Positions 9,753 to 47,677 of a stretch of 64,000 bases of DNA are shown here, one piece after another. The notes beneath the pieces are model-generated. The model saw only the letters and a program-made list of their open reading frames with translations. It was not told the DNA's origin and searched no databases. How positions within the stretch are numbered: position 1 is the stretch's first letter; each line of letters begins with the position of its first letter. The stretch lies in the sequence record NC_054912.1; one strand, written 5' to 3'. This stretch comes from Escherichia phage vB_EcoM_F1. A program made the position numbers and the translations under genes.

Positions 9753-10223
9753 TTAATCATGTTTCCACACCCCATCGGTATTTGACCAAAGTCGCTGATT
9801 ATCTGATCCTCGCCACAGCTTTTTAGTCGGAAGATTTTTCTCATACTTCCCATCAATAATAACATCAACATATTTAAGCATTTCTAGTTGTTTAATATCT
9901 TCAAACTTATATCCTGTCCACAACCAAATGCTTTTATTGGGATAAAGATTTTTTACTGTTTGAACGATGCAATGAATCACGTCTCTGTTATCAGGATAAA
10001 GAGGGTCACCTCCGGTTATAGTTAATCCTTCTATATAATCATTATTCAAACATTCAATTAATTGTTCTAGTGTTTCACCAGTGAATGGAATACCATTTCT
10101 AGCATTCCATGTTGATTTATTATAACACCCTTCGCATTTATGCAAACAACCTGTAACGAAAAGAACGGTCCTGCATCCAGGGCCATTCACAAAATCGCAA
10201 GGATAAAATCTATCATAATTCAT
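9753..10223 (-). CDS. nrdG: anaerobic ribonucleotide reductase activating protein (radical SAM)
   Basis: 156 aa; CxxxCxxC-type cluster motif GCLHKCEGC. Confidence 0.9.
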   Translation of the reverse strand: MNYDRFYPCDFVNGPGCRTVLFVTGCLHKCEGCYNKSTWNARNGIPFTGETLEQLIECLNNDYIEGLTITGGDPLYPDNRDVIHCIVQTVKNLYPNKSIWLWTGYKFEDIKQLEMLKYVDVIIDGKYEKNLPTKKLWRGSDNQRLWSNTDGVWKHD

Positions 10224-11520
10224 TGGTGTTTAACCCTATGCATGATTTCTTTATTTTTACCGAGATTAAATCCGCGTTCGTTCGGATTTCCCAAATAACC
10301 ACATGTTCTTCTTATGGTATTCATCTTTTTAGGATCAGTTTCTCCACAAATAGAACAAACAAATCCGTTTTCAGTAGGAGTCATTTCATGGGTACTTCCA
10401 CATGTAAAACATTTATCTACTGGCATATTAACACCAAAATAATCTAAATGTTGTGCAGCATAATCCCACACGGCCTCAAGACCCTTTAAGTTATTTTTCA
10501 TATCAGGAAGTTCAACATAAGAAATGTGACCACCTGTCGCAATGAAATGATATGGCGCTTCACGAGAAATCTTTTCAAACGGAGTAATATTTTCTTCTAC
10601 TGAAACATGGAAACTGTTAGTGTACCAACCTTTATCAGTAACATCCTTTACACTTCCATATTTTTCTGTATCGAGTTTACAGAAGCGATAACAAAGGTTT
10701 TCAGCAGGAGTAGAATATAAACTAAAAGCAAAACCGGTTCTTTCAGTCCACTGTTTAAGATGAGCATTCATTTTAGTTAAAATTTCTCGTCCAATATCAC
10801 GACCGACAAGAATATTCAATTCGTGAATACCAATGTATCCTAGGGACACTGAACTTCTACCGTTTTTAAATAACTCAATTATGTCGTCATCAGGTTTAAG
10901 ACGAACCCCGAATGCACCTTCTTGGTAAAGAATAGGAGCAACAGTAGCTTTAACTCCTTTTAAGGAACTAATTCTACACATCAAGGCTTCAAAACATAAA
11001 TCCATTCGCTCATTGAATAATTCAGTAAATTTCTGTTCATTGAGCTGTGTTCCAATATAAGAATCTAACGCGATACGAGGAAGATTCAGTGTTACAACAC
11101 CAAGATTATTACGTCCATCAAGAATTTCATTACCAGTCGAATCTTTCCATACGCTCAAGAAACTACGGCAACCCATTGGAGAAACAGGAATAGATGAACC
11201 AGTGATAGCTTTATTGTTCTTAGCTGAAATAATATCAGGATACATTCTTTTGCTTGCACACTCTAGAGCAAGCTGCTTAATATCATAGTTCGGATCGTCT
11301 TTATAAAGATTAACACCTTCTTCAACAAACATAACAAGCTTAGGGAAAATAGGAGTTATCCCATCACGACCAAGACCTTTAATACGATTTTTCAGAATTG
11401 CTTTCTGAATCATTCGTTCAGTCCAGTCAGTTCCCGTACCAAATGTAATTGTTACAAAAGGCGTTTGCCCATTAGAGCTGAAAAGTGTATTTACTTCATC
11501 ATTATATTCAGCATGAGTCG
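10220..11520 (-). CDS. nrdD: anaerobic ribonucleotide reductase NrdD, exon 2
   Basis: Class III RNR sequence including the C-terminal glycyl-radical region (RRTCGYLG); 5' boundary is the 3' splice site, placed only to about 20 nt. Confidence 0.85.
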
Positions 11521-11727
11521 CAAATTCATGCCCGTTTATATGAAACAACAAAATTTGGATAGTCCATAGATATGCAACGTTCTTTTATAGTGCTAGGATG
11601 AAAATTTAGCGCTTTAGCTGCTTCTATATAAGACGTATACTTAATACCGTCAACAACCACATATTCAGGAACTTTATGAATAGTAGTCTTAATACTCAAA
11701 ACAAGAGGATGAGTTTCGACTTCACTT

Positions 11728-12297
11728 TCAGTGCAATTTAAATATTCCGCTGCTTTTTTTAAAACTTCTAAAAGTTTTATTTTTAAGCTTTATCGATACT
11801 TGTTTTTTACTTTTTCGACTATTGATATTATTTTGCACATGTTCCTTAGATCTTCCGTTTTTAGCATAATATTCAGCTATAGAAGATTTTATATTGTTTT
11901 TATGAGATTCGGATAACACTTTACCCTTATGAGCATCTCTTAATTTTTGAATATGTTCTTCAGTATCCGGATGCTTATAAAACTTTTTACCGCCTATGGA
12001 TTTATTTAAACATTTTTTGCTATAAAAATGTTTACGTATGACCTCTTCTTCATGTTTTAATGCATCTTTATAACTATCAAATGTTTTTAAAATTATCCAT
12101 TTAGTAGGTGTATCAGTTTTTAAGCGTTCATTTATATACTTAGATGACGTTGTGTAAGTTTTCCAGTTTGTGGGCTTGTTTTTAATTGTTCTAAATTTTT
12201 TATAACCGATATAAATGTCGCCGTTAGAAAACTTAACTAAGTATGTAAATGCGTCTTTATCTTTTATTTTAGTACAACGTCTTTTTATCCATTTCAT
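11728..12297 (-). CDS. intron-encoded GIY-YIG homing endonuclease (I-TevII-like), N-terminal catalytic part; gene appears frameshifted
   Basis: 189-aa ORF with GIY-YIG-type motif (FSNGDIYIGY); a C-terminal HTH-like segment continues in the +1 frame at 11528-11790. Confidence 0.7.
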   Translation of the reverse strand: MKWIKRRCTKIKDKDAFTYLVKFSNGDIYIGYKKFRTIKNKPTNWKTYTTSSKYINERLKTDTPTKWIILKTFDSYKDALKHEEEVIRKHFYSKKCLNKSIGGKKFYKHPDTEEHIQKLRDAHKGKVLSESHKNNIKSSIAEYYAKNGRSKEHVQNNINSRKSKKQVSIKLKNKTFRSFKKSSGIFKLH

Positions 12298-12336
12298 TGT
12301 TTCACCTCGTATTCATAAGATAATCTTATTTATACA

Positions 12337-12344
12337 AGATGACT
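12337..12344 (-). promoter_or_regulatory. late promoter (TATAAATA) inside the intron, upstream of the endonuclease ORF
   Basis: Plus tatttata = TATAAATA on minus strand, about 40 nt upstream of the ORF start. Confidence 0.55.
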
Positions 12345-12537
12345 GCTGCATGTCGCCATGCAGATTAGACTATATCTTCATCTTTCGATGCCGGCCGTTT
12401 CGAATAGCATTAGCTTCTATTCTACACCGCTACATTCATCACGGTTAGTCGTTAGGCATTTAGTTCAAAAGAACATTTAGCACGGGATTGTCTACTAGAG
12501 AGGTTCCCCGTTTAGACCGGTTTTACATGAGCCTGAA

Positions 12538-13083
12538 TTAAATTAACTCATACGCCTGGAACGCGTCATAGACATCTTTTTCTGTTTTAGATTGAGCATA
12601 ATTCAATGCATCAGCGATTTGCCATTTTTCTGCATCCTCAATATGTTTTGCATAGGTGCGTTTAACATAAGGAGAAAGTACTTTATCTACATTCGCAAAA
12701 GTCGTTCCGCCATATTGATGGGAAGCAACCTGTGCAGTAATTTGTGCCATAATTGCAGTAGCAACACCGATTGATTTAGGAGTTTCAATCTGTGCATTAC
12801 CAAGCTTAAATCCATTCTCAAGCATTCCTTTTAAATCTACTAAACAGCAATTAGTAAATGGAAGAGCAGGGGAATAATCAATATCGTGGAAATGAATAAT
12901 TCCGCTTTCATGCGCTTTCATAATAAAAGACGGGACCATATTTTTGGCAATGTGTTTAGACACAATACCAGCCATAAGGTCCCGTTGAGTTGGAAAAACA
13001 CGAGAATCTTTATTAGCATTCTCGTTTAAAAGGTCTTTATTAGTTTTATGAATCAATCCTTCAATTTCTTTTTCAATTGTCAT
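12538..13083 (-). CDS. nrdD: anaerobic ribonucleotide reductase NrdD, exon 1
   Basis: N-terminal NrdD sequence; the ORF reads through the 5' splice site, so the 3' boundary is approximate. Confidence 0.85.
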   Translation of the reverse strand: MTIEKEIEGLIHKTNKDLLNENANKDSRVFPTQRDLMAGIVSKHIAKNMVPSFIMKAHESGIIHFHDIDYSPALPFTNCCLVDLKGMLENGFKLGNAQIETPKSIGVATAIMAQITAQVASHQYGGTTFANVDKVLSPYVKRTYAKHIEDAEKWQIADALNYAQSKTEKDVYDAFQAYELI

Positions 13084-14625: not shown

Positions 14626-14804
14626 TTAGAAATAGACTTTTCGCCATTAGAATAATAAACTTCGAGTTTAGCACGATTATTTTTAATTTGAATAACCTTT
14701 GCTGTCATCAAAGTTCCATACCCATAATAAACTGCAACTTCATCACCTACATATACCGCGCTTCCGCGGTAATCGTGAATATAGTCAGTTCCTTCGATCA
14801 TCAT
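14589..14804 (-). CDS. hypothetical small protein
   Basis: 71-aa ORF. Confidence 0.45.
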   Translation of the reverse strand: MMIEGTDYIHDYRGSAVYVGDEVAVYYGYGTLMTAKVIQIKNNRAKLEVYYSNGEKSISKWKYGDCMVKLG

Positions 14805-15064
14805 TTAAAATATTCTCGCAGTTGGTCAAATCCACCAATATGACTTCCATCAGGAGCAAATACCTGGGGCATTGTCAAGCCAATTTGAGTATCACGACCT
14901 AGTTTAGTCAGAATCTCAGCGATTTTCTCATCATCAAAAACACCTTTTTCCGGCATAATGTTGATAAATTCAAACGGCTGTTTCTTCACGGTCAAAAGAC
15001 GTTTTGCATTATCGCAATACACACATTTATGAATGTTGCTATCATAACCATATACTTTAAACAT
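14801..15064 (-). CDS. nrdC: phage thioredoxin/glutaredoxin
   Basis: 87 aa with CVYC active-site motif. Confidence 0.9.
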   Translation of the reverse strand: MFKVYGYDSNIHKCVYCDNAKRLLTVKKQPFEFINIMPEKGVFDDEKIAEILTKLGRDTQIGLTMPQVFAPDGSHIGGFDQLREYFK

Positions 15065-15065
15065 A

Positions 15066-15308
15066 TTATTCCTTAATTCCTAGTACTTGTTTAAAAGTCT
15101 CGTCGTAATCAAGACTTTGGCCCGTTTGTTCTTTATGTTTGTATATAATATCACTTACTTCTGATAGCATATTTTTATATGAACGAGTTAAAGCAGATTT
15201 AAGCACGCTGTATCTATCAGGAAATTTACCATGTTCATTATAATAAGCTATTGCTAATTCACGGACTGCCTTTTCAGCAGCCTCCATATATTCTTTACGC
15301 TTGGTCAT
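15066..15308 (-). CDS. hypothetical protein (nrdC.1 position)
   Basis: About 80 aa from the internal Met MTKRKEY; the listed ORF extends to 15449. Confidence 0.45.
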
Positions 15309-15609
15309 TTTCTTCTCGGTCAAATCGGTGTTTACAATGGCGACATTTATAACGAAGATTACTAGTCTGCCAATGGACCAATTGCACCTGTTCAGTTCCA
15401 CATTCAGGGCAATTAGGAACGTTTTTAGAAGCCCTTTCACGACGTTCAACCATGACCATTACAGAATCCCAATTAATAGGAGGGCTATAATCATCACAAC
15501 CATGAATCTTTCCACGCATTTCCAAATCGTCTTCTTCACCAGCCATAATAATTTTAATTAGACTAGAATTACTTGAAGCTGCAATGTCTTCTAATAAACG
15601 CTTTTTCAT
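15295..15609 (-). CDS. zinc-ribbon small protein
   Basis: 104 aa with CPEC...CRHC. Confidence 0.5.
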
Positions 15610-16532
15610 TTCAATACCTCAATAGCATTACGTAAACCATTTGCTTTGGAGGTTAAAGCCTTAAGAACTTTAGTATGCTCTTCAATTTGTTTTTCAACTT
15701 CAGCCAAACGGGCATTGAGATATTCGCGTTCTTCTTTCATAGTATCATTCCCATGATTGGGTTTTGGTGCAGATTTAAATTCACTAGGGTCCTTTAACTT
15801 AATAACAAATTTAGTTTCAAACAGTGAAAGACCATAATTCGTATTATCATCAAAGGATTTAACTACATCCATATTAGATAATAACTCATGCAAATTATAA
15901 GACAAAGAACTAATAGTTTCATTGTGTTTATTAGCTTCGCGTGGTTTCATATACGGAAGATTTTTATATATCTCATGCGGAGCGCAAACGATAATTGACA
16001 ATTCAAATTGTCCATTCTGGGACGATGGAATGAATTTAGCCGTAACCCAGTCTTTTACATTCACATTAATAGTACGGTTATCACCATGACAAAACAGTCT
16101 ACGAGAATGCTTAAAAAGCATATTCACGTTATTATTGAATTCGTGTGAAAATTCACTAGCAAATTTTTCTTTACTATCTTTAGAAAACCATTCTTCTAAA
16201 TAAGTTCTTTTCACGTCGTTAATAATATTAAATGTAACAACACTAGCATTTGATACATTAGTCTCAATGTAGCTTGGATACATAAATTTTTTAACATTAT
16301 TAACAGCTATCACAGAAGATAGTAATCGGGAACGTTTGAACCACTCGAGCAAAGAACCAAGAGAATGTGAATACGCATTTTGTGTATCTTTACAAATATG
16401 GTTTTCCCATCCAATATAGTCTAAAAAATCACGAAGAATATTATTGATTACTGCTCTGTGTCCGATCTGATAATTACGGTGTTTAGTAATAAGACTGTCA
16501 AAATAATCAATATAATGTTTACGAGTTTTCAT
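15606..16532 (-). CDS. paralogue A of a four-gene family with C-terminal coiled coil
   Basis: 308 aa; shares (L/F)xxMDVVxS and the C-terminal heptad helix with the next three genes. Confidence 0.6.
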   Translation of the reverse strand: MKTRKHYIDYFDSLITKHRNYQIGHRAVINNILRDFLDYIGWENHICKDTQNAYSHSLGSLLEWFKRSRLLSSVIAVNNVKKFMYPSYIETNVSNASVVTFNIINDVKRTYLEEWFSKDSKEKFASEFSHEFNNNVNMLFKHSRRLFCHGDNRTINVNVKDWVTAKFIPSSQNGQFELSIIVCAPHEIYKNLPYMKPREANKHNETISSLSYNLHELLSNMDVVKSFDDNTNYGLSLFETKFVIKLKDPSEFKSAPKPNHGNDTMKEEREYLNARLAEVEKQIEEHTKVLKALTSKANGLRNAIEVLK

Positions 16533-16586
16533 GTTCTTCTCACTTGGTTAATGATTTATGCTCCGAGCCATCCTTGGCTTTAAATT

Positions 16587-17588
16587 TTACTTAATTAACT
16601 GTAAAGCTTGTTCAAGACGATCAAGGCGATTAACAGATTCTTCCCAAATCCTTTTAGCCTGCTCATATTCTTTGTGCGCTTTATTAGAAATTTCTAGAAC
16701 TTCTTTATAAGCTTTTTCTAATGCAATAACTTCTGGACGAATTTCTACCGGTTCAGGTGAATCATCAAGATTATCCATTAGTTCCTCAAGAGTAGTTTCT
16801 TCTTTAGGAGTATTCACAATTTCATCACATTTTTGTTGATAAATTTCTTTACTAGTAGGTGAATAAGTACATTTCACTTCACGAAGACTAACTACAATTT
16901 TATATCCTTCCCAACCACACAGATTTTTGAAAGGATATGTATGAATACTTTTTACAGTTTTCATACAGCCCAAAGCCGCCTCTAATTGATGAGTTGTGGT
17001 TCTAGCAATTGAGAAAAATTTATTAATATTCTTTTGGTTAGTTTCTGGTGTAAAAAATCTGTAATTAATAAAAATAGCTACTTTGTTTTTATCAAGCTCA
17101 TATTCTTCTGCTATAATCATATCATCAGCTAAGGGATGAATTTGACGATAATCGCCATAACATAATTTAGAAGCTGATTTTAGAATTTGCTTCGTAAAAC
17201 TCCTAAATTCACTAACCCAACGACGAGTAAAAATATTCTCAGGGTCTTCTTTATTATTAAGATGATAAGAATTAACATCACCGAACCAATTATATCCTAC
17301 TACATCTTTGGTTCGTTTAATTTCTTTCCCAAAATTACCAAGAATATCCCGATTAACCAAATATGAAAGAAGACGAGACTCTTTAAAAGTTTTCTTGATA
17401 ACATCTTTATCTACACGGCTAGAAATTTTACGAATTTCATGAATAAATTTAGTAGAAGAAACAATACTTGCATCAACACTATTGAGCCATTGATTGATAA
17501 TAGAAAGAACGATATTTTGACCAAACATCGGTATAGCTTTATCATCAATAACTCTATTGAATGATTTGATATATTCGTTACGAGTCAT
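16587..17588 (-). CDS. paralogue B of the four-gene family
   Basis: 333 aa from MTRNEY with a GAGGAG RBS; FRSFTKQILKSASKL motif shared with paralogue C. Confidence 0.6.
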   Translation of the reverse strand: MTRNEYIKSFNRVIDDKAIPMFGQNIVLSIINQWLNSVDASIVSSTKFIHEIRKISSRVDKDVIKKTFKESRLLSYLVNRDILGNFGKEIKRTKDVVGYNWFGDVNSYHLNNKEDPENIFTRRWVSEFRSFTKQILKSASKLCYGDYRQIHPLADDMIIAEEYELDKNKVAIFINYRFFTPETNQKNINKFFSIARTTTHQLEAALGCMKTVKSIHTYPFKNLCGWEGYKIVVSLREVKCTYSPTSKEIYQQKCDEIVNTPKEETTLEELMDNLDDSPEPVEIRPEVIALEKAYKEVLEISNKAHKEYEQAKRIWEESVNRLDRLEQALQLIK

Positions 17589-17613
17589 AATAATCTCCTC
17601 AGTAGAAAGTAAG

Positions 17614-17648
17614 AACATTATACCACATCCTTGTGGCAAAGTAAACTA
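17614..17648 (-). promoter_or_regulatory. T4-type early promoter
   Basis: Minus strand GTTTAC -35 and TGGTATAAT extended -10. Confidence 0.55.
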
Positions 17649-18671
17649 GTTCAGTGCATTTAGTGCATTGTTCAGTTTAGAACGTTGCTTTGTCAGATTT
17701 TGAACCCTTGACTGAGCTTGTTCTAACGCCTTTTCAGCTTCTAGCACTTCATTGGTCGCTTTAACGAGTTCATCATCTACTGCCTTAAGAGACTTCTCAA
17801 TCGCGTCAGCGTGCCATTTTTCTACAGGTTTAAAATTTGAATTTTCAGTAGGAAGAAAACTCACTTTATTAAGTTTACATGCATCTATATTGCTTGAGCT
17901 ATACATCCAAAATTTAGGATCGTTTGATAAGTAATTGGATAAATTTAAATTTAAGTTATCTTGTACTTCCTGCTTTTTCTCTTGCGTGACTTCGTCCTTT
18001 CTCAAAAAATCGTATTTAAATGAAACGATCATATCAAGTTCATACGTTGTTGTGTCTAACTTAAATCGTTCAAAACGAGGTAAAATCTTAGATTGAACAG
18101 CAGCAACAACATCCATATACTTAAATGCTTCTGTCAACTGTGATTTAAGGCATTCACAAATTGAAAGAGAATTTTTTGTATTAGGTTTAAAGCTAATTCG
18201 CGCAGTTCTATTATTTTCTTTTAATGGTCTTACTTCCATTTGAAGAGTATAACCATCAAATTTCAGATTCTTTAAGTTAATATCAGAACCTTTTAATCGA
18301 CTAGCAGTAGACAAAATTTGCTTTAATTGTCTACGGAACAGAGCAATAAATCTCCATTCAATACGATAATGATTTGGATTGAAAAATCCAGATGATAAAT
18401 CGACCTTACTCTGACCAACGCCTTGAACAAATAGAGGATTTTTATAATCAATAGTTTTACAGAAATCGGTGAGCTGTTCACGAGCAGTCATTTGTGTAAT
18501 ATATCCAGCTTTATCAAAATGACGTAACCATTCACTGCTATTCATATACTTAAAGTGAATATCACGATTAACTTTATCAGGGTCTAAATTATTTTGGCAC
18601 AAAAATGTCATAACATCACGAGTATAGCTGGCATTACGAACCATATCTTCAATTTGAGAACGAGTTTTCAT
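17646..18671 (-). CDS. paralogue C of the four-gene family
   Basis: 341 aa; FRRQLKQILSTASRL and MDVVAAV motifs; C-terminal coiled coil. Confidence 0.6.
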   Translation of the reverse strand: MKTRSQIEDMVRNASYTRDVMTFLCQNNLDPDKVNRDIHFKYMNSSEWLRHFDKAGYITQMTAREQLTDFCKTIDYKNPLFVQGVGQSKVDLSSGFFNPNHYRIEWRFIALFRRQLKQILSTASRLKGSDINLKNLKFDGYTLQMEVRPLKENNRTARISFKPNTKNSLSICECLKSQLTEAFKYMDVVAAVQSKILPRFERFKLDTTTYELDMIVSFKYDFLRKDEVTQEKKQEVQDNLNLNLSNYLSNDPKFWMYSSSNIDACKLNKVSFLPTENSNFKPVEKWHADAIEKSLKAVDDELVKATNEVLEAEKALEQAQSRVQNLTKQRSKLNNALNALN

Positions 18672-18679
18672 AGTGTTCC

Positions 18680-19567
18680 TTAAGATTTAAGTAAATCAAC
18701 AATTTTAATTAATTTTTCACGCTCAGATTTAGCTTTACTACTCAATCCAGATAGTCTGAAAATTTCATCGTCATACTGTTGAATAGAAATATTCAGCTCT
18801 TCAATTTGCTTATTAAAATAATCAATTTGTTCAGAATGTTTTTCGTTACTACGAACTGGTACAGGTTTTGTAGGTAATTTAGATGAACTGGATTCATCCG
18901 GGCGATAAATTAAAATACAACTTGAACCAATAGGGCATTTTGCACCAGATGAATATTCTAATGTTCCGGCTTCTTTTAAAACTTCAAAAGCTAAACAGAG
19001 ATGATGCCCCATATTAACATAATCAGTAGAGCGAGCTCTGATATAATAATCATCGCCGCGAATACTAAATTTAAAGCATTTAAGGTCTTCTGTATTATTG
19101 GTCTTAAAAATCATTTGTTTATCTAGACCTTTAGCTAATCGAGCGCCTAATGCTAATAATCGTCGTTGATTTTCCCACAAATCCGCAATCATTTGATCAA
19201 ATGATAATTTCGGCATTAGTCGACCATAAAGGTCGTATCCTTTATTATAATTGCGAAGGATTTCACTCGCATTAATACGAGACAATGCTCCAATTTTATT
19301 AAGGGCTTTCATGATGCGATTAGATAAACCCATTCCAGACCCATTTGTTCGTTGTAAATGTTTATCTAATCCAAACCCAATATCAACTTTAAATTTATCT
19401 AAAATTTCAGCATGAACATCTCTGTCAATAACATTCAAATCCAAAGTTGGGTTAAATCTATGAAAAAATTTATCTGGCTCTCCACGACGAAGTACAGTCC
19501 ATTCATTCAATTTTTTATTAACTAAAGATTTAATTACTGCATTGACATTATTAATTACGACTGACAT
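18680..19567 (-). CDS. paralogue D of the four-gene family
   Basis: About 295 aa from MSVV with a GAGGAA RBS; the listed ORF extends to 19588. Confidence 0.55.
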   Translation of the reverse strand: MSVVINNVNAVIKSLVNKKLNEWTVLRRGEPDKFFHRFNPTLDLNVIDRDVHAEILDKFKVDIGFGLDKHLQRTNGSGMGLSNRIMKALNKIGALSRINASEILRNYNKGYDLYGRLMPKLSFDQMIADLWENQRRLLALGARLAKGLDKQMIFKTNNTEDLKCFKFSIRGDDYYIRARSTDYVNMGHHLCLAFEVLKEAGTLEYSSGAKCPIGSSCILIYRPDESSSSKLPTKPVPVRSNEKHSEQIDYFNKQIEELNISIQQYDDEIFRLSGLSSKAKSEREKLIKIVDLLKS

Positions 19568-19574
19568 ATTTTCC

Positions 19575-19982
19575 TCACTCAATTTCAATTTTACTAAATA
19601 CGCAGAATATGATGGAAAAGACTATATAAGCACCACACACAGATTGAACTAATACCATTCCAAAGAACCAAACAATATTATCAAACAATGTCTGTTTTAC
19701 GTCGAAAGGACGTAAACTTACAGTAATATTATCGCCTTTTTCTATTGATGAATACATCTCTGGGGAAATATATTCGCTAAATCTATAACCGTCATTGAGT
19801 TCATATACAGCAATAAACGATAAACTAGATCCCTTTCCTTGAGTTCCTGTAAGGGTATTAACTACAGTAACATCATAATCTTTATAATGCATATAATCAT
19901 TAATTGCGTAATAACCATATGCAATTACTATACATAAACAACATATCAATAAATTCAATCTTTTAATTATCAACTGTTTCAT
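19575..19982 (-). CDS. membrane protein
   Basis: 135 aa with N- and C-terminal hydrophobic helices. Confidence 0.5.
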   Translation of the reverse strand: MKQLIIKRLNLLICCLCIVIAYGYYAINDYMHYKDYDVTVVNTLTGTQGKGSSLSFIAVYELNDGYRFSEYISPEMYSSIEKGDNITVSLRPFDVKQTLFDNIVWFFGMVLVQSVCGAYIVFSIIFCVFSKIEIE

Positions 19983-20037
19983 AATAATCTCAGTTAAAAG
20001 GGCTTAGAACCATTATACCATCCTTGGTATAAAGCGG

Positions 20038-20565
20038 TTATGCGAGTACCGTCTTTAACCGTTCTTCAAACTTCCGAAGAGTATTCTGGCGTTCAGCTCT
20101 TTGCTTTTTGTAAGTTTCAATACGCTCTGAAATGAGAGTGTATCGTTCATTTACTGATTCTTTCATAAAATCAGGAATTTCACGAGAAGATTTAATCTCG
20201 TCAAATTTATCAATAACAGCTTGCTCTTCAGCAATTAAGTTATCATACATCAAAATATCTTTCTTGATGAACTCAATATCTTCTTGAGTTACACGAGATA
20301 ATTTAGATGCTTTATCCTTTTTGTACTGTTCATTAGTATCACGAGACCAGTGTAATGTACGATTTTTATTCGTATTTTTGTAAATTTCTACAATACCGAT
20401 CTCATCAATAATAACGATCCAATTCCAACGAGATTTGTAAATTTGCCCTCCATCAACCGTGATTTCACCTCCGATTGAGATGTCATTAAAGAACTTGCTT
20501 TGTGCTTCAGATTTAAATTTACCATCATTGTAGTTTACCAAGTTGAAAATATCTTTAGCATTCAT
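20038..20565 (-). CDS. hypothetical protein with C-terminal coiled coil
   Basis: About 175 aa from MNAKDIF with a GGAGGA RBS; the listed ORF extends to 20625. Confidence 0.5.
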   Translation of the reverse strand: MNAKDIFNLVNYNDGKFKSEAQSKFFNDISIGGEITVDGGQIYKSRWNWIVIIDEIGIVEIYKNTNKNRTLHWSRDTNEQYKKDKASKLSRVTQEDIEFIKKDILMYDNLIAEEQAVIDKFDEIKSSREIPDFMKESVNERYTLISERIETYKKQRAERQNTLRKFEERLKTVLA

Positions 20566-20591
20566 TTTCTGTTCCTCCGTAGTTGATAGTT

Positions 20592-20624
20592 GTATAGTAC
20601 CACAGAGGAACGGTCTTGTAAACA
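20592..20624 (-). promoter_or_regulatory. T4-type early promoter
   Basis: Same module as other early promoters (ttgtatagtacca ... tgtaaacaa on plus). Confidence 0.5.
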
Positions 20625-20625
20625 A

Positions 20626-20940
20626 CTAAAAGAAACTTCTTTCACAATTTTTTCCACTGAACCACGCGCTCACTGCTTTCTTAGTCTCAGGAGCAGTGTT
20701 ATCCATAAACCATTCAAAGGCAGCCTTTTTATGATTCTGGAGAGCTTCTCGGGCTTTAATCTGCTCACGGTCTATTAACACTAACATATGAGCCTTTCTT
20801 GTCACCAAGGGCTTCTTATGATTCTTGGAGTATTCCCAGTCATTTGTCCAACGCATTGTCGTTGCGAACTGAAATACTGCTTCTTTAATTTTAGTTTCGT
20901 AAATTTCACGAGCCTTTGAGTATAACATCATTACCTCCAT
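20626..20940 (-). CDS. hypothetical protein
   Basis: 104-aa ORF. Confidence 0.5.
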   Translation of the reverse strand: MEVMMLYSKAREIYETKIKEAVFQFATTMRWTNDWEYSKNHKKPLVTRKAHMLVLIDREQIKAREALQNHKKAAFEWFMDNTAPETKKAVSAWFSGKNCERSFF

Positions 20941-21029
20941 TTACCAGTTTAATTCTAGTCATCTTTTTGATGGCAGTCCATATAATCTATTTCTGAACTG
21001 CCTTTTTGTCATAGAAGGCCTCTTATGAA

Positions 21030-21998
21030 TTATTTCAGAAGAGTAACCTCAGCAATTTCTTCCCAACCATTTTTGTCGGTCATAATAAAGTCAGCAAGAT
21101 AAAGAGCAGTACGCAGTGAAACATTGCGTAAACGATTAACATTGACTTTCATCCATGATAATGCTTTATAAGTTTCTTCATCAGAAAGACCGCGCTTTTG
21201 CATCATGTCAGTTGAAAGAATAACATCTTCAACCCTGACCATAATTTCTTCATTAGTGTGAACACCCAAATCCAAATAAACCGAGCGGGACACTAATGCT
21301 TGTAAATGTGGAGCAAGTTTAGTACCACGGTCTAATTCGCGGTCAATGTCAACGTTTGTGATAAAAACAATCGTTCCTTTAAATTCAAACTCACGCTCAA
21401 TGCCTTTTTCTTCTAAGTAAGAAGATGCAGTGCTCCAGCAGACTTTACGGGTCTCTCCAGTGTCCAGAGCAGCTTTCAGAAGATTAAGAATGTCCATATC
21501 AGAGAAAACATCCACATCATCAATCAAAAGGACAGAATTCTCTTCACGATTATTCCAAAGCTGTTCATAAAGACCGATACCAGAGATTTTACCATTAATG
21601 CTTTTATACTCAATGTATCCAATGTCATTTGCTTTATTTAAAGCTTTATCTAAAGAATACGTTTTACCAATACCCGCCGCACCAGAGATAATTAATGAAC
21701 GAATGTTTCCGTTAATAATACCATTCGTCATCATTCCCATAACATTAAATCTTTTATTAATGCGGGTTTTCATATCTTCATATGATTCTTTAACTTCTTC
21801 AACTTTTACACCATCATATGAAATGTCTGATTTGTAAACCCAAACACCGCGACGCTTACCGTCAATTTCAACAAAAACTTTACCATCTCCTTGTGCATCT
21901 ACCGGAGCATTATCTGGGAACCATTCACCTAAGAGCTCAAAAGTTCCAGAGATTTCTTTACCGAAGTAGATACCCTTATTGATAGTTACAGTTTTCAT
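21030..21998 (-). CDS. AAA+/P-loop ATPase
   Basis: Walker A GAAGIGKTY, Walker B LLIDDVD; start taken at MKTVTINKG with a GGAG RBS. Confidence 0.7.
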   Translation of the reverse strand: MKTVTINKGIYFGKEISGTFELLGEWFPDNAPVDAQGDGKVFVEIDGKRRGVWVYKSDISYDGVKVEEVKESYEDMKTRINKRFNVMGMMTNGIINGNIRSLIISGAAGIGKTYSLDKALNKANDIGYIEYKSINGKISGIGLYEQLWNNREENSVLLIDDVDVFSDMDILNLLKAALDTGETRKVCWSTASSYLEEKGIEREFEFKGTIVFITNVDIDRELDRGTKLAPHLQALVSRSVYLDLGVHTNEEIMVRVEDVILSTDMMQKRGLSDEETYKALSWMKVNVNRLRNVSLRTALYLADFIMTDKNGWEEIAEVTLLK

Positions 21999-22030
21999 TT
22001 TATTCTCCAATCTCACATTTGTTTTGATAG

Positions 22031-22067
22031 GGTAATAGTATCACACTACTACCCTTCTGTAAACAAT
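22031..22067 (-). promoter_or_regulatory. T4-type early promoter
   Basis: ggtaatagtatcac ... tgtaaacaa module. Confidence 0.5.
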
Positions 22068-22331
22068 TTATTTTAACGTTCGCCAAATTTTTACTGCTTC
22101 ACGGCGAGATACTTCTACAGCTCCAAGTTCTACAGCTTTTTGGCGTCGCCGAGCGTGTAAGTCATAATGTTTAATGCGTTTATCTTGAAACCAAGAACGT
22201 TTCATTCCTATTGCTTCTGCCATTTCGTGAAGCTCTTCAATATCTCCATCAGTGAACATATGACAATTTTTAGTTGGATGACCGCGAAGTTTCCATCCAT
22301 GATTCATTAAAACATCTACGTAAACTGTCAT
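22068..22331 (-). CDS. DUF4031-like small protein
   Basis: 87 aa; MTVYVDV...CHMFTD...HYDL pattern as I recall for DUF4031; family assignment from memory. Confidence 0.5.
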   Translation of the reverse strand: MTVYVDVLMNHGWKLRGHPTKNCHMFTDGDIEELHEMAEAIGMKRSWFQDKRIKHYDLHARRRQKAVELGAVEVSRREAVKIWRTLK

Positions 22332-22477
22332 TGATTCTTCTCCAAATAAGTTTCGATAATTTTCTGGGCGAGATAAACCGCGTTATCTTCAGTTGCGTCT
22401 TCTAAGAAACTTTCAAAACACTCTGAAATTTCTTCTGTATCAATCAACTTTTTTACTTCAATTGGTGTAATTTTCAT
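22328..22477 (-). CDS. small ORF (49 aa) translationally coupled to the DUF4031-like gene
   Basis: Not in track; ATGA stop/start overlap with the downstream gene. Confidence 0.35.
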   Translation of the reverse strand: MKITPIEVKKLIDTEEISECFESFLEDATEDNAVYLAQKIIETYLEKNQ

Positions 22478-22512
22478 TTTGTTTTCCGTTTAAGTGTTTG
22501 TTTTGATAGTTG

Positions 22513-22544
22513 TATAGTACCATAAAGCTTTATGCTTGTAAACA
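22513..22544 (-). promoter_or_regulatory. T4-type early promoter
   Basis: Minus TTTACA -35, 18-nt spacer, TACTAT -10, A/T-rich upstream. Confidence 0.55.
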
Positions 22545-22565
22545 ACTTTGTGAAAAATTTTTGAA

Positions 22566-22591
22566 ATAAAAAAGGGAGCCCGAAGGCTCCC
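22566..22591 (-). terminator. rho-independent terminator
   Basis: Minus GGGAGCC-UUCG-GGCUCCC followed by U6. Confidence 0.7.
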
Positions 22592-22593
22592 TA

Positions 22594-23607
22594 TCATTTA
22601 TAATAACTTCGGTGGTTTTCAAGATAGACCTTCTCAAGGAAGTCATCCCAGAAACCCATGTCTACTTTTTGCTGCATACCGTTCTTAGAAGCTTCAGTAG
22701 ATGCTGCTTCTACTTGATCGACCACATCTTCCAAAAACTCTTGAACTGTTTTAAATGGATGCTTACCCAACTTCACGTCGAGAATAAATGGAGCATCTTG
22801 GAGTGGATAAACCAAGTCACCAGTTTTGTAAATTTCCAATAGTTGGAGTCCACCACGGCAAGCATGACTCAGAGCTTTCCAGTCAATACCTTCATTGGCT
22901 TCGGCCTTACGAGCGCGTTCACCATATTCAGCATCTAATTTGTTCAGTGACTGCTTAAGCTCAATAAGAGAAAGAGTTGTCTGATATTTACGACCCAACA
23001 CTGTGTAAAACGTCTGTGGGCCTGTTTTCTCATGATTATGGAACACCCATTCACAGAATTCGTTTTCTGGAAGACGATGCTTAATATCTTCAACTTTAGT
23101 ACGACGCTGCTTAATGGAACCGTCTTCTTGGTAATCAACCCATTGCTCAGGGATTTGATTAACTACTTTCAATACATCGCGTAATGCAGCCAAACGAGAA
23201 CCCTTAACGCCGTATTTAGAAGCTTGCTTACGGACATATCCTAAATATGATTTCATGTTAGTCGTATAAAAACGAGAACGGTTGTCTTGAATAAACTTCC
23301 ATACATCAGGCAAATCAGATTTAACCACTAGTTCAGGCGGAGTGTGAAGCATATCCAATGCTACAGTTTCACCATCTGCCGCTAATTTAAAGAAATACTT
23401 AAGACTGTATAGTTCATGGTCAATATCATCTTTAGTGTTTTTAGATGATGTGTTGTTAGTGTTTTTGCTCATATGCTCTTTAACATTTCCGATAAGAATA
23501 TCGCGAGCAGGAGGAACAAAAATTTCTTTAAAATCTACATCAGATTCTGGAGTAGAAGTTCCATAAAGATGACTACCAAAATAGCTTTTCATTACTGTTT
23601 TCATCAT
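22594..23607 (-). CDS. nucleotidyltransferase-fold protein (Pol-beta-like GS...DxD motif)
   Basis: 337 aa; N-terminal GSHLYGTSTPESDVD with a candidate third Asp about 60 aa downstream. Confidence 0.6.
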   Translation of the reverse strand: MMKTVMKSYFGSHLYGTSTPESDVDFKEIFVPPARDILIGNVKEHMSKNTNNTSSKNTKDDIDHELYSLKYFFKLAADGETVALDMLHTPPELVVKSDLPDVWKFIQDNRSRFYTTNMKSYLGYVRKQASKYGVKGSRLAALRDVLKVVNQIPEQWVDYQEDGSIKQRRTKVEDIKHRLPENEFCEWVFHNHEKTGPQTFYTVLGRKYQTTLSLIELKQSLNKLDAEYGERARKAEANEGIDWKALSHACRGGLQLLEIYKTGDLVYPLQDAPFILDVKLGKHPFKTVQEFLEDVVDQVEAASTEASKNGMQQKVDMGFWDDFLEKVYLENHRSYYK

Positions 23608-30215: not shown

Positions 30216-30677
30216 TCATTGAGTTTTAATTACTGCTTTAGAAGCCTTTCCTGGTAAACGACGACTGTTAATAATTGCCATCCTACATTGAAGTGACGGG
30301 TCTTTGAACTTCGCATTAGGTTTACAAACTGTAAATCCAAGCCAAAGATTTCCATCTGTGATTTCTAAACGTCCAGGACGATATTCAACCCCATCAATAA
30401 AATCCTCGTCAATGTCAGGACGCGGAGGCATACTCAGGAATTCATTAACTTCTAAAACATGGTCTTTTATTTTATGGAATAATTCAAAAACGTATGTCTC
30501 ATCAATCTCCCGTTGAATTGCGCGATCAAGAAGATGTTGAGAATATTTTAGATGAAACGATGAGACCCCTGCTGCTTTTGATGCCTCACGAATCTCATTG
30601 TTAATTTGACGAAACTCCGACTCAAAGTGACGACGAAGCTTATTTCGACGGATAAAAACTTCTGTATTGATAGTCAT
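30216..30677 (-). CDS. regB: endoribonuclease RegB
   Basis: 153 aa; matches T4 RegB as recalled. Confidence 0.9.
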   Translation of the reverse strand: MTINTEVFIRRNKLRRHFESEFRQINNEIREASKAAGVSSFHLKYSQHLLDRAIQREIDETYVFELFHKIKDHVLEVNEFLSMPPRPDIDEDFIDGVEYRPGRLEITDGNLWLGFTVCKPNAKFKDPSLQCRMAIINSRRLPGKASKAVIKTQ

Positions 30678-30702
30678 GTTATTCTCCTCTTAACTGATAG
30701 AA

Positions 30703-30737
30703 AAATTATACCACAGTCAAGAGGAAAAGTAAACAGT
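30703..30737 (-). promoter_or_regulatory. T4-type early promoter upstream of regB
   Basis: Minus GTTTAC -35 and TGGTATAAT extended -10. Confidence 0.55.
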
Positions 30738-31057
30738 TATTCTTTAAATCTAATCAATTTATTCATAGACTTTGAAACTTCTGCACGAACCTCATGTAGA
30801 TTTTTGAGCTGTTCAAGACGCTGCTCATAGTAAGCAATTTCATCTTCTTCGAGACAGTCCTGTGAATCTTCTTTAAGATAACGTGCATAGTCCTGAAAAG
30901 CGTTACGAACTACTTCCTGGAAATCATCAAGACTTTGAATTTTCTTAGGAGCAGCAGATACACGACGAGGGGCAGTATAATACTCATAACCAAACCCTGC
31001 GCTTAATTGAGCCATTAGTATTTTTCCTCTGGTTGGAACACAGCACGGCAAGCCCAC
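30737..31057 (-). CDS. hypothetical protein (vs.3 position)
   Basis: 106-aa ORF. Confidence 0.5.
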
Positions 31058-31281
31058 ATACTGGCTTCTTTGAGTTTCGTTTTAGCAATAGTTAACTGAT
31101 CGAGGCTTTCGGCGTAATTCTTCGCGAGTTCATCATCTTCACAGCTATCAAATGCTTCCCAAAATTCATCGTATAAAGCATCAAAGATAAGTCCTAAACG
31201 AACTTCAGCGTCTTTGATAGCATTCACTTTACCGATTTTCTCTTCAGTATGTGGTTTATAACCTTTAATATCTTCAATCAT
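31015..31281 (-). CDS. small protein at the vs.4 position; candidate Acb2-type cyclic-nucleotide sponge
   Basis: About 88 aa from the internal Met with a GAGGAAG RBS; assignment by gene order only. Confidence 0.45.
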
Positions 31282-31495
31282 ATTTGACTTCCTCACCAGT
31301 ACATAAATCATATTCAACTAAACGAATAGGTTCATGAATGCCATATCCTTGAACAGAAATTTCTGTAGTAGGATAAATTCCATTAATATCACCCATGTTC
31401 CATGCTTCGTTAAATTGCTGTTCGCCTGAATTACTAAACCATTCGGCGAAAGCATTTAACACATCTTCAGAACCTTCAATAATTATCTTTGCCAT
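31274..31495 (-). CDS. hypothetical small protein (vs.5 position)
   Basis: 73-aa ORF. Confidence 0.5.
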   Translation of the reverse strand: MAKIIIEGSEDVLNAFAEWFSNSGEQQFNEAWNMGDINGIYPTTEISVQGYGIHEPIRLVEYDLCTGEEVKYD

Positions 31496-31857
31496 TACAA
31501 ACTCTCGGTAAAGGTACGAGCGATAACGTCGCGCTGCTGTTCCGGAGTCAGAGAGTTAAAGCGAACTGCATAACCGGATACACGGATGGTCAGCTGTGGA
31601 TATTTTTCCGGATGCTTAACTGCATCTTCCAGAGTTTCACGACGCAGAACGTTAACGTTCAGGTGTTGACCACCTTCAATTTTAACTGTAGGCTGTTGCT
31701 CAATTTCAATTTCACGGGCATGCAAACCATAGAAAATTTCTGGGTCTACAAAAGAGTCCTCTTTAAAGGTTTTAGAGACAATAATTCGCGCTTGAATACC
31801 ATCTTCAAAATAAATAGTACCTTTATGTGTGCCTTCAAGAATTTGATATGCTTTCAT
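31495..31857 (-). CDS. autonomous glycyl-radical cofactor (GrcA/YfiD-like)
   Basis: 120 aa ending with the glycyl-radical motif [17 protein letters not shown]. Confidence 0.85.
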
Positions 31858-31864
31858 ATAAACC

Positions 31865-32194
31865 TCAATTAGAAAATAAATTTATCCAAGATTGTTCTTT
31901 AATTAAAAATGGCTCAGAATCATATGCCATTAAACTCTGTGTGATTAGTCCTTTAAAAGGCCCATCAATAAATTCCATGGTAAAATATGGAATTTTATTC
32001 ATTAGCCGTGCATTAGGAGCAGTGCACAAAACTTTGCATCCTTTGAATACGCCTTTTTGCAATTTGTATTGCTTGGGATAAAATTCGCTCAAAATGTTAT
32101 TATTTGCTAAAATTTCAAAATGATTCACCAATTTATTTTTAATAGTTTTTGGTGAAAAATAAAGATATTCGAAAAGCTGTGTGTCTGTCATCAT
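31865..32194 (-). CDS. hypothetical protein (vs.7 position)
   Basis: About 109 aa from the internal Met; ATGA overlap with the upstream gene. Confidence 0.5.
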
Positions 32195-32730
32195 TGCATT
32201 CCGATTACGAAAAACTGTGGACGAGTAATACCACCAATACAACATTTAATATTACAGCAGCAGTGTACAGTGTCAATATGGACACTATAAATCTTATCCA
32301 TATCAGGAGATTTGACAGGCTCATCAATTATATACAAAATTCGCGAAAGCGATAAACCTCTGAACTTGCTTCCTTTATTACCGATAAAACTGCGCACAGA
32401 ATCAGTAAATAAACGAAAACGTATATCATCATTAGAATAACGCGAAAATTCCTTTTTGATGCTATTTGCAGAAATTTTAGCGTAAGCTGAAGTATTAGAA
32501 AGAACAATAACTGTTCCACCGTCATACAACCAATTAGCGGCAAAATTAGTTACTGCAGTTGATTTACCGGATTGACGTCCACCATCTAGTCGAAGTGTGC
32601 AATACTGCTTAAGTAAGTCTTCAAATGGTGGGATATAATCGTTTTTACAAATTTCTTCTACTCTAGCATCAGAATGGTGTGTAAAAGCATTCATCAGGGA
32701 TAGATAAGGACCAGTTAAAAATGTTCTCAT
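32191..32730 (-). CDS. P-loop NTPase-like protein (vs.8 position)
   Basis: 179 aa; Walker A GGRQSGKST and Walker-B-like ILYIIDEP; Cys-rich C-terminus. Confidence 0.55.
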   Translation of the reverse strand: MRTFLTGPYLSLMNAFTHHSDARVEEICKNDYIPPFEDLLKQYCTLRLDGGRQSGKSTAVTNFAANWLYDGGTVIVLSNTSAYAKISANSIKKEFSRYSNDDIRFRLFTDSVRSFIGNKGSKFRGLSLSRILYIIDEPVKSPDMDKIYSVHIDTVHCCCNIKCCIGGITRPQFFVIGMQ

Positions 32731-32882
32731 TTCTTCTCTCTAAGTTTGGGCCATTCCGTGGCGCATGAATTGTCCATTTCTGTATTTACCCATTACCGCA
32801 CTTGGGCTCGACCTTATTACAGGTTGGCGGGAATCCCTCACAAAATCATGAGGTCCAGGTTGTTCCCATATTTCTTATTTGC

Positions 32883-33356
32883 TTATTTGAATGATTTAAC
32901 GTACTGAATAGAACCTTTACTATTCACGAAAGCGATTTTACCATTTTTATTATACATGGTAGCAGTACGCTGATATCCATAAGTTTGCTTACCAGATTGA
33001 TAACCAACTAATGCGAAATTATCTTCACCCATTTTATTCTGTTTAGCGCGAATGCGTTCATGACCATGTGCCATAAGAACCTTAGCATCACCCGTTGCAA
33101 TGGATCTACGAGTTTTTTCATCTTCAACTGTATTAACAAAGTCGTCAAATGAATCAAATTTAGCATGAGATTTATTATACAGTTTTCCATCTACTGCATA
33201 ATTATATCCTTGTACATCCATCTCAACTTCTGTACCATCATCCAATACAGCAGTGATTTTCTGTCCTTTTTTAAATTTCAAAAGATCAGTAAAAGATTCA
33301 GCAATAATTTGAGAATTAATAGCTGCTTCAGTAATAAATTCTTGATATGTTTTCAT
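32883..33356 (-). CDS. head internal protein (IP-type) with capsid-targeting N-terminus
   Basis: 157 aa; N-terminal MKTYQEFITE|A matches the internal-protein targeting sequence and an LxE/IxE prohead-protease site. Confidence 0.7.
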   Translation of the reverse strand: MKTYQEFITEAAINSQIIAESFTDLLKFKKGQKITAVLDDGTEVEMDVQGYNYAVDGKLYNKSHAKFDSFDDFVNTVEDEKTRRSIATGDAKVLMAHGHERIRAKQNKMGEDNFALVGYQSGKQTYGYQRTATMYNKNGKIAFVNSKGSIQYVKSFK

Positions 33357-33392
33357 GTGTTTCCTTTAAATATTTTAATTAGTAACTGTGAA

Positions 33393-33427
33393 TATACTAT
33401 CACAGTTTTAGGAGAAAGTAAACAACT
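33393..33427 (-). promoter_or_regulatory. T4-type early promoter upstream of the IP gene
   Basis: atatactatcacag ... agtaaacaac module. Confidence 0.5.
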
Positions 33428-33958
<531 letters not shown>

Positions 33959-45966: not shown

Positions 45967-47677
45967 TAACCTTAATTGGTTTGTTGGTGTTGTTGAAGAT
46001 AGAATGGACCCATTAAAATTAGGTCGTGTTCGTGTTCGTGTGGTTGGTCTGCATCCACCTCAAAGAGCACAAGGCGATGTAATGGGTATTCCAACTGAAA
46101 AATTACCATGGATGTCAGTTATTCAACCTATAACTTCTGCAGCAATGTCTGGAATTGGAGGTTCTGTTACTGGACCGGTAGAAGGAACTAGAGTTTATGG
46201 TCATTTTTTAGACAAATGGAAAACTAACGGAATTGTCCTTGGCACGTATGGTGGAATAGTTCGCGAAAAACCGAATAGACTTGAAGGATTTTCTGACCCA
46301 ACTGGGCAATATCCTAGACGTTTAGGAAATGATACTAATGTATTAAACCAAGGCGGAGAAGTAGGATATGATTCGTCTTCTAATATTATCCAAGATAGTA
46401 ACTTAGACACTGCAATAAATCCCGATGATAGACCACTATCAGAGATTCCAACCGATGATAATCCAAATATGTCAATGGCTGAAATGCTTCGCCGTGATGA
46501 AGGATTAAGATTAAAAGTTTATTGGGATACCGAAGGATATCCGACAATTGGTATTGGTCATCTTATCATGAAGCAGCCAGTTCGTGATATGGCTCAAATT
46601 AATAAAGTTTTATCAAAACAAGTTGGTCGTGAAATTACTGGAAACCCAGGTTCTATTACGATGGAAGAGGCGACGACTTTATTTGAACGTGATTTGGCTG
46701 ATATGCAACGGGACATTAAATCACATTCTAAAGTAGGACCAGTCTGGCAAGCTGTCAACCGTTCTCGTCAAATGGCGTTAGAAAATATGGCATTTCAGAT
46801 GGGTGTTGGTGGTGTAGCTAAATTTAACACAATGTTAACTGCTATGTTAGCAGGAGATTGGGAAAAAGCGTATAAAGCCGGTCGTGATTCATTATGGTAT
46901 CAACAAACAAAAGGCCGTGCATCCCGTGTTACCATGATTATTCTTACGGGAAATTTAGAATCATATGGCGTTGAAGTGAAAACCCCAGCTAGGTCTCTAT
47001 CAGCAATGGCTGCTACTGTAGCTAAATCTTCTGACCCTGCTGACCCTCCTATTCCAAATGACTCGAGAATTTTATTCAAAGAACCAGTTTCTTCATATAA
47101 AGGTGAATATCCTTATGTGCATACAATGGAAACTGAAAGTGGACATATTCAGGAATTTGATGATACCCCTGGGCAAGAACGATACAGATTAGTTCATCCA
47201 ACTGGAACTTATGAAGAAGTATCACCGTCAGGAAGAAGAACAAGAAAAACTGTTGATAATTTGTATGATATAACCAACGCTGATGGTAATTTTTTGGTAG
47301 CCGGTGATAAAAAGACTAACGTCGGTGGATCAGAAATTTATTACAACATGGATAATCGTCTTCACCAGATAGATGGAAGCAATACAATATTTGTACGTGG
47401 CGACGAAACGAAAACTGTTGAAGGCAATGGAACTATCCTAGTTAAAGGTAATGTTACTATTGTAGTTGAAGGTAATGCTGACATTACAGTTAAAGGAGAT
47501 GCTACCACTTTAGTTGAAGGAAATCAAACTAACACAGTAAATGGAAATCTTTCTTGGAAAGTTGCTGGGACAGTTGATTGGGACGTTGGTGGTGATTGGA
47601 CAGAAAAAATGGCATCTATGAGTTCTATTTCATCTGGTCAATACACAATTGATGGATCGAGGATTGACATTGGCTAA
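45950..47677 (+). CDS. 5: baseplate hub and tail lysozyme gp5
   Basis: 575 aa; internal T4-lysozyme-like domain (MAEMLRRDEGLRLKVYWDTEGYPTIGIGHL) and C-terminal VxGxxxxx beta-helix repeats. Confidence 0.95.
   Translation: MEMISNNLNWFVGVVEDRMDPLKLGRVRVRVVGLHPPQRAQGDVMGIPTEKLPWMSVIQPITSAAMSGIGGSVTGPVEGTRVYGHFLDKWKTNGIVLGTYGGIVREKPNRLEGFSDPTGQYPRRLGNDTNVLNQGGEVGYDSSSNIIQDSNLDTAINPDDRPLSEIPTDDNPNMSMAEMLRRDEGLRLKVYWDTEGYPTIGIGHLIMKQPVRDMAQINKVLSKQVGREITGNPGSITMEEATTLFERDLADMQRDIKSHSKVGPVWQAVNRSRQMALENMAFQMGVGGVAKFNTMLTAMLAGDWEKAYKAGRDSLWYQQTKGRASRVTMIILTGNLESYGVEVKTPARSLSAMAATVAKSSDPADPPIPNDSRILFKEPVSSYKGEYPYVHTMETESGHIQEFDDTPGQERYRLVHPTGTYEEVSPSGRRTRKTVDNLYDITNADGNFLVAGDKKTNVGGSEIYYNMDNRLHQIDGSNTIFVRGDETKTVEGNGTILVKGNVTIVVEGNADITVKGDATTLVEGNQTNTVNGNLSWKVAGTVDWDVGGDWTEKMASMSSISSGQYTIDGSRIDIG

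Follow-up and report, generated by a model that had tools for sequence, protein, structure and literature searches.

Gene vs.6 of a T4-type Escherichia phage encodes a GrcA-type autonomous glycyl radical cofactor whose 3' half resembles a gene conversion tract from E. coli grcA

An open reading frame on the minus strand of a T4-type phage (31495..31857, ATG to TAA, 120 aa) was identified as vs.6, the gene for Y06I, which encodes a phage autonomous glycyl radical cofactor homologous to GrcA. The product probably restores pyruvate formate-lyase (PFL) of the host by the mechanism proposed below, and the 3' half of the gene appears to have been overwritten by E. coli grcA; we put the probability of this combined reading at roughly 85%. 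All positions refer to the window, i.e. the whole 64-kb stretch of DNA that was analysed, which corresponds to nt 32001-96000 of MZ170041.1. The gene, its family and the in vitro activity of the T4 protein have been known since 2001, and the RefSeq product name of T4 vs.6 (NP_049730.1) is "autonomous glycyl radical cofactor GrcA". No description of the conversion tract or of the formate coupling discussed below was found in the searchable literature, whose reach does not extend to Wagner et al. 2001 and the T4 genome review. The same literature yielded neither a vs.6 mutant with an in vivo phenotype nor an account of phage GrcA physiology.

Family membership and genomic context of vs.6

The family was defined as stand-alone proteins of about 14 kDa in which an N-terminal segment of about 60 aa is followed by a C-terminal PFL-type glycyl radical domain. 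Vs.6 has this architecture, being small, free of a catalytic barrel and ending in a radical domain of the PFL type. The initial annotation had placed a protein with a C-terminal glycyl radical signature here, without giving its strand, and had taken it for a spare part of the GrcA/YfiD type; both points were borne out by profile searches. The match to Pfam Gly_radical (E=2.5e-18) was limited to aa 60-101 and to the C-terminal end of the profile. The NCBIfam GrcA model TIGR04365 was matched at E=1.2e-45 (154.9 bits) and the solved structure of E. coli GrcA (PDB 6OWR) at E=9e-42, with residues 22-120 aligned to GrcA 28-127. The protein is furthermore a full-length member of PHROG 1209 (phrog_1209, E=5.7e-63, residues 1-120 of a 121-position profile). 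Alignment to E. coli GrcA, which had been suggested as a check, showed the radical motif to be conserved. The loop RVSG[YF]AV, aligned with GrcA G102 and PflB G734 (numbering from PMC12338860), was located by motif scan and alignments and reads RVSGYAV in Vs.6 (aa 92-98, 31564..31584, minus strand); the codon of the radical glycine, Gly95, lies at 31573-31575 on the same strand. The longer C-terminal motif quoted in the initial annotation spans aa 92-108. The RRxCGY loop and Zn ribbon that mark an NrdD C-terminal domain were not found in Vs.6.

The TIGR04365 score of Vs.6 falls short of the equivalog cutoff of 170 bits. This is also the case for the experimentally validated Y06I of T4 (151.1 bits) and for nine other phage homologues (106-157 bits), although GrcA was the top-scoring family for every phage homologue tested. 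The cutoff thus shuts out the whole phage branch on account of its divergent N-terminal half and does not decide function.

Genomic context points to the same gene. The ORF is 100% identical to MZ170041.1 63495-63857. Over the surrounding 1.4 kb the identity to Escherichia phage vB_EcoM_FN (MZ170041.1, Tequatrovirus) is likewise 100%, and hundreds of other T4-type phages reach 97-98%. T4 Vs.3, Vs.4, Vs.5, Vs.7, Vs.8, RegB and lysozyme (e) all map around vs.6 with the T4 order kept, and the ORF itself, which matches the phage profile at full length, has vs.5 and vs.7 as its neighbours within the tk-regB-e region. These neighbours, together with 98% aa identity, make it the ortholog of T4 Y06I, which is the T4 homologue mentioned in the initial annotation. 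The gene is closely packed against both neighbours. As read from the sequence, a Shine-Dalgarno element GAGG (31863..31866, minus strand) is located 5 nt 5' of the ATG and overlaps the vs.7 stop codon, and the vs.6 TAA overlaps the vs.5 ATG in the string TAATG (31493-31497, minus strand). The overlap of the stop codon with the start of the next gene indicates a tightly packed, translationally coupled minus-strand cluster. Scans of 30600-33500 for promoters (13 hits versus 11.4 in shuffles) and terminators (3 versus 1.6) did not rise above shuffle level.

All 219 residues of T4 Vs.8 can be aligned with 32194-32841 on the minus strand, at 94.5% identity; the open frame here is only 179 aa long (32191-32730) and is accompanied by a separate upstream ORF of 33 aa (32740-32841). 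An in-frame stop codon, either genuine or a sequencing error, thus seems to split vs.8. T4 carries denV, ipII and ipIII between vs.8 and the lysozyme gene e. The corresponding interval of the window (32731-33427) is the region of internal-protein genes known to be hypervariable in T-even phages. It holds one gene resembling those for internal proteins (32883-33356), whose product begins MKTYQEFITEA and is just 33% identical to IPII; denV and ipIII gave no tblastn match anywhere in the 64 kb. A second lysozyme-like region lies on the plus strand (46469-46966); it shows 43% identity to T4 gene e across 166 aa and probably encodes the lysozyme domain of gp5, the baseplate hub protein.

Homologues of vs.6 were found in 1587 phage records that cover many genera of Straboviridae, T5-like Demerecviridae and jumbo phages of Yersinia and Erwinia; in a T5-like phage the gene showed no linkage to nrd genes. 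Public annotation of the gene is inconsistent across these records. It is labelled "pyruvate formate-lyase" in MZ170041.1, hypothetical in many other records and "unknown function" in PHROG 1209, and the T5-like Salmonella phage Stitch has its homologue annotated as 'ribonucleotide reductase subunit'. Other labels in MZ170041.1 likewise call for attention: the two exons of nrdD are annotated as separate 'large subunit' genes, and about a dozen consecutive CDSs of 240-1030 nt (window 14801-23604, MZ170041.1 46801-55604) are all labelled 'thioredoxin', which looks like an annotation propagation error.

Mosaic structure of the gene

Comparison with host DNA divided vs.6 into two parts of different character. 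The 5' half (codons 1-59, 31680..31857, minus strand) is phage-specific; it has a GC content of 0.34, is 43% identical to E. coli grcA at the nucleotide level and is kept among T4-like phages. The 3' half (codons 60-120 and the stop codon, 31495..31679, minus strand) encodes the structured glycyl radical domain, has a GC content of 0.49 and is 97.3% identical to nt 200-384 of E. coli grcA. When the ORF was searched by blastn, grcA was matched in all 5426 complete E. coli genomes, exclusively over nt 179-363 and at 97.3%. The transition is sharp. A three-way alignment showed phage and E. coli DNA to be unrelated until the codon before EGGQHLN and virtually identical from there to the last few codons, and a maximum chi-square analysis placed the breakpoint at nt 178, with 43% identity to its left and 97% to its right, a contrast reached in none of 5000 permutations. 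Compared with E. coli grcA, the final 61 codons of the phage gene show 2-5 synonymous substitutions and a change in the Ile60/Val67 codon at the 5' edge, to which the T4 tail adds R73H.

The degree of identity is best judged against the divergence of grcA among enterobacteria. E. coli grcA differs from that of Citrobacter at 14 synonymous codons (92% nt identity) and from that of Salmonella at about 16% of nucleotides (about 84% identity). The phage 3' segment, with 97-100% identity to E. coli grcA in the Tequatrovirus and Mosigvirus island, is thus closer to the E. coli gene than either of these bacterial genes is. The segment was found at an identity of at least 95% in about 504 phage records. 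Mosigvirus RPN187 carries the same island: its identity to phage FN is 97.3% over nt 179-363 but drops to 88.8% in the 5' half and to 74-86% in the flanks. The two phages differ at 11 of 59 codons synonymously in the 5' half as compared to 4 of 61 in the 3' half, a contrast that is no more than suggestive as to a single or an independent acquisition of the tail by Tequatrovirus and Mosigvirus. Nearly the same domain is encoded by RB49 and by T5-like phages of E. coli and Salmonella at 63-87% nucleotide identity, meaning that function does not force this DNA sequence.

These observations look like the record of a long-established phage copy of grcA that recently received its present 3' half from E. 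coli grcA by conversion. Transfer would have run from host to phage, since E. coli grcA is a normal vertical ortholog along its whole length. The edges of the tract fall at GrcA residue 67/68 on the left, near the start of both the structured domain and the phage-host homology, and at the stop codon on the right, which is the expected product of homologous gene conversion acting on an older, diverged phage copy. The sharply bounded, host-identical segment may serve as a natural example of conversion confined to one functional domain, and could be of use in studying the exchange of sequence with the host that virulent phages keep up despite their modified DNA.

The type of tail does not simply follow the host of isolation, as Tequatroviruses listed with Salmonella, Yersinia or Citrobacter hosts retain the E. 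coli-type tail. Recent conversion from the respective host was also considered for other lineages. The Klebsiella phages KP179 (L085:301-663) and Matisse (L087) carry the variant ETLLDAVEHPEKY, which is typical of Klebsiella/Salmonella GrcA and differs from the E. coli sequence at this place. The tail of KP179, with the Klebsiella/Salmonella-type LLDAVEH and a GC content of 0.54, is just 83-87% identical at the nucleotide level to any grcA in a set of 80 species that did not include K. pneumoniae grcA.

Proposed role in infection and alternative readings

Biochemical work on the two best known family members provides the basis for a proposed function. Andorfer et al. 2021 (PMC8683613) credit Knappe and co-workers (Wagner et al. 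2001, BBRC 285:456) with the finding that two proteins of about 14 kDa, YfiD of E. coli and Y06I of T4, act as spare parts that restore O2-cleaved PFL once PFL-AE has installed the glycyl radical and a complex with the cleaved enzyme has formed. The two were the sole validated spare parts at that date. In PMC8683613 the N-terminal segment of GrcA (1-60) is described as disordered and as favouring both association with cleaved PFL and activation, and the C-terminal part (61-127) as structured and a duplicate of PflB 693-759. In E. coli the radical is passed from GrcA G102 to PflB C419 (PMC12338860).

The following sequence of events is proposed for the infected cell. Under microaerobic conditions O2 would attack the Gly734 radical of PflB, leading to loss of the C-terminal 25 residues. 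Vs.6 would then bind the damaged PflB so that its aa 61-120 substitute for the radical domain of the enzyme, the host activase PflA would put a radical on Gly95 from where it would be passed to PflB Cys419, and PFL activity would return. These steps have been shown in vitro for the T4 ortholog and E. coli GrcA, as reported in PMC12338860 and PMC8683613; activation by PflA and rescue of cleaved PFL would be expected of Vs.6 from this phage by analogy with its 98% identical T4 ortholog. A six-frame motif scan of the 64 kb found only two glycyl radical loops, those of NrdD and Vs.6, and only one ORF with a radical-SAM CxxxCxxC motif, namely NrdG. The window thus holds no activase of the PFL type, which fits reliance on host PflA as reported for Y06I. 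Rescue of PFL would be useful to the phage because T4-type infection stops host gene expression, leaving the host unable to replace PflB or GrcA. Restored PFL would in turn supply acetyl-CoA, ATP through acetate formation, and formate, the last of which would serve the phage-encoded NrdD as reductant.

The genes for the class III ribonucleotide reductase (RNR) lie 18.4-21.7 kb from vs.6 by record annotation and Pfam, in agreement with the distance of about 20 kb given for nrdD and nrdG in the initial annotation. The activase gene nrdG (9753..10223, minus strand; Pfam Fer4_12 and Radical_SAM) is followed in coordinate order by nrdD (10220..13083, minus strand; Pfam NRDD and Gly_radical), which is split into two exons (12538-13083 and 10220-11551). 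The nrdD intron contains an ORF of 189 aa (11728-12297) for a GIY-YIG endonuclease (Pfam SegE_GIY-YIG, E=2.6e-6).

The initial annotation had left open whether Vs.6 patches the host enzyme or the phage RNR. The first option is supported by the rescue of PFL by the T4 ortholog, reported in PMC8683613, and by the identity of its domain to that of GrcA. The second, in which Vs.6 activated by NrdG replaces the C-terminus of O2-cleaved NrdD, was rejected on sequence grounds and is regarded as highly improbable. Several observations speak for it: nrdD, nrdG and vs.6 occur in one phage, whose only encoded activase is NrdG, and a role in nucleotide metabolism was suggested for vs.6 by Nolan et al. 2006 (PMC1524935), who listed it among 11 ORFs of unknown function conserved in T4 and five T4-like genomes and argued from the Pfam domain in common. 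Moreover, in Aeromonas phage Ah1 (MG250483.1; L093:1022-1884) the gene order is nrdD-nrdG-vs.6-nrdC-nrdH, with the start of the vs.6 homologue overlapping the nrdG stop codon. Against this, comparison of Vs.6 with the C-terminal exon of NrdD by BLASTP was not significant (E=1.6) and left the radical loops unpaired. In NrdD a Cys4 Zn ribbon (CxxC...CxxC) leads up to the loop RRTCGYLG; both are lacking in Vs.6, whose radical domain is instead 100% identical to that of GrcA and about 78% identical to that of PflB. The T4 protein works with PFL and PFL-AE according to PMC8683613, and vs.6 is not adjacent to nrd genes in T4-type and T5-like phages. The arrangement in Ah1 is in its own right a genomic link between a spare glycyl radical protein and class III RNR genes and raises the question of activation by NrdG.

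Vs.6 might otherwise act on host glycyl radical metabolism without repairing cleaved PFL, by serving other PFL-type enzymes such as TdcE, by activating undamaged, radical-free PflB, or by titrating PflA and thereby redirecting fermentation. GrcA does restore the inactive full-length PflB variant G734A in vivo (PMC12338860; also a J Bacteriol 2022 paper), the phage-specific N-terminal half is unlike that of GrcA so that partner recognition could differ, and E. coli genomes contain a median of three matches each to vs.6 DNA, i.e. more than grcA alone. Nothing in the data, however, points to inhibition, a radical domain unchanged from GrcA suggests that docking and chemistry are also the same, and PMC8683613 reports that Y06I rescues cleaved PFL in vitro, which together make such a role unlikely. 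It is scarcely credible that the phage took up the host-like 3' half recently and without selection, in a gene that has no function for it. The 97% identity of the 3' 185 nt to E. coli grcA and their host-like GC content would suit this explanation, but the gene is kept at full length in the 1587 phage records from several families, its frame is intact and translationally coupled to its neighbours, and no amino acid changes separate FN and Mosigvirus RPN187 in codons 60-120 although identity falls to 74-89% in the DNA on either side. The protein is also retained in more distant lineages, among them RB49 and the T5-like phages, where nucleotide identity is only 63-87%.

A connection of Vs.6 to the phage RNR is more likely metabolic, through formate, than a matter of NrdD repair. 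In the class III RNRs that have been characterised, the T4 type included, both reducing equivalents come from formate (PMC4493059). As formate is at once a product of PFL and the reductant of class III RNR, live PFL would feed anaerobic dNTP synthesis of the phage. We tentatively suggest, at less than even odds, that homologous gene conversion keeps the phage radical domain matched to the host in Tequatrovirus and Mosigvirus, and that Vs.6 may also be wired to anaerobic dNTP supply via PFL formate, perhaps with activation by NrdG in some phages such as Ah1.

Comparison with T4 Y06I, GrcA, PflB and NrdD

The closest known relative is Vs.6 of T4 (Y06I, NP_049730.1), which is alike in its length of 120 aa, its place in the early region tk-regB-e, flanked by vs.5 and vs.7, and its E. 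coli-like 3' half. Two of the 120 residues distinguish the proteins: Q54 of the present phage is P in T4, and R73 is H in T4. At the latter position the arginine found here is the residue of E. coli GrcA, unlike the histidine of T4.

E. coli GrcA (YfiD, P68066, PDB 6OWR) is a small stand-alone protein like Vs.6 but is 7 residues longer. GrcA 68-127 and Vs.6 61-120 are 100% identical and the radical glycine is kept, G102 of GrcA corresponding to G95. Homology is weak in the N-terminal half, where 18 of 50 aligned residues (about 36%) are identical to GrcA 1-66, following the common pattern AR.IV.K..F.ED...RE..E..P.V, and where Vs.6 is encoded by AT-rich phage DNA. Expression differs as well, vs.6 being expressed from an early/middle gene cluster of the phage whereas grcA is under anaerobic and acid-stress control of the host.

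The C-terminal radical domain of PflB (693-759) has fold and motif in common with Vs.6; Vs.6 58-120 matched PflB 697-759 at E=5e-26 with about 78% identity, including an identical core of 22 residues. PflB is nevertheless an enzyme of 759 aa with a catalytic Cys418/Cys419 barrel, whereas Vs.6 is the radical domain alone and incapable of catalysis by itself. The NrdD of the same phage is likewise a glycyl radical protein, with a Pfam Gly_radical match in both proteins and inactivation of both by O2 cleavage at the radical glycine; unlike Vs.6 it has the RRTCGYLG loop, a Zn ribbon and an activase of its own, NrdG.
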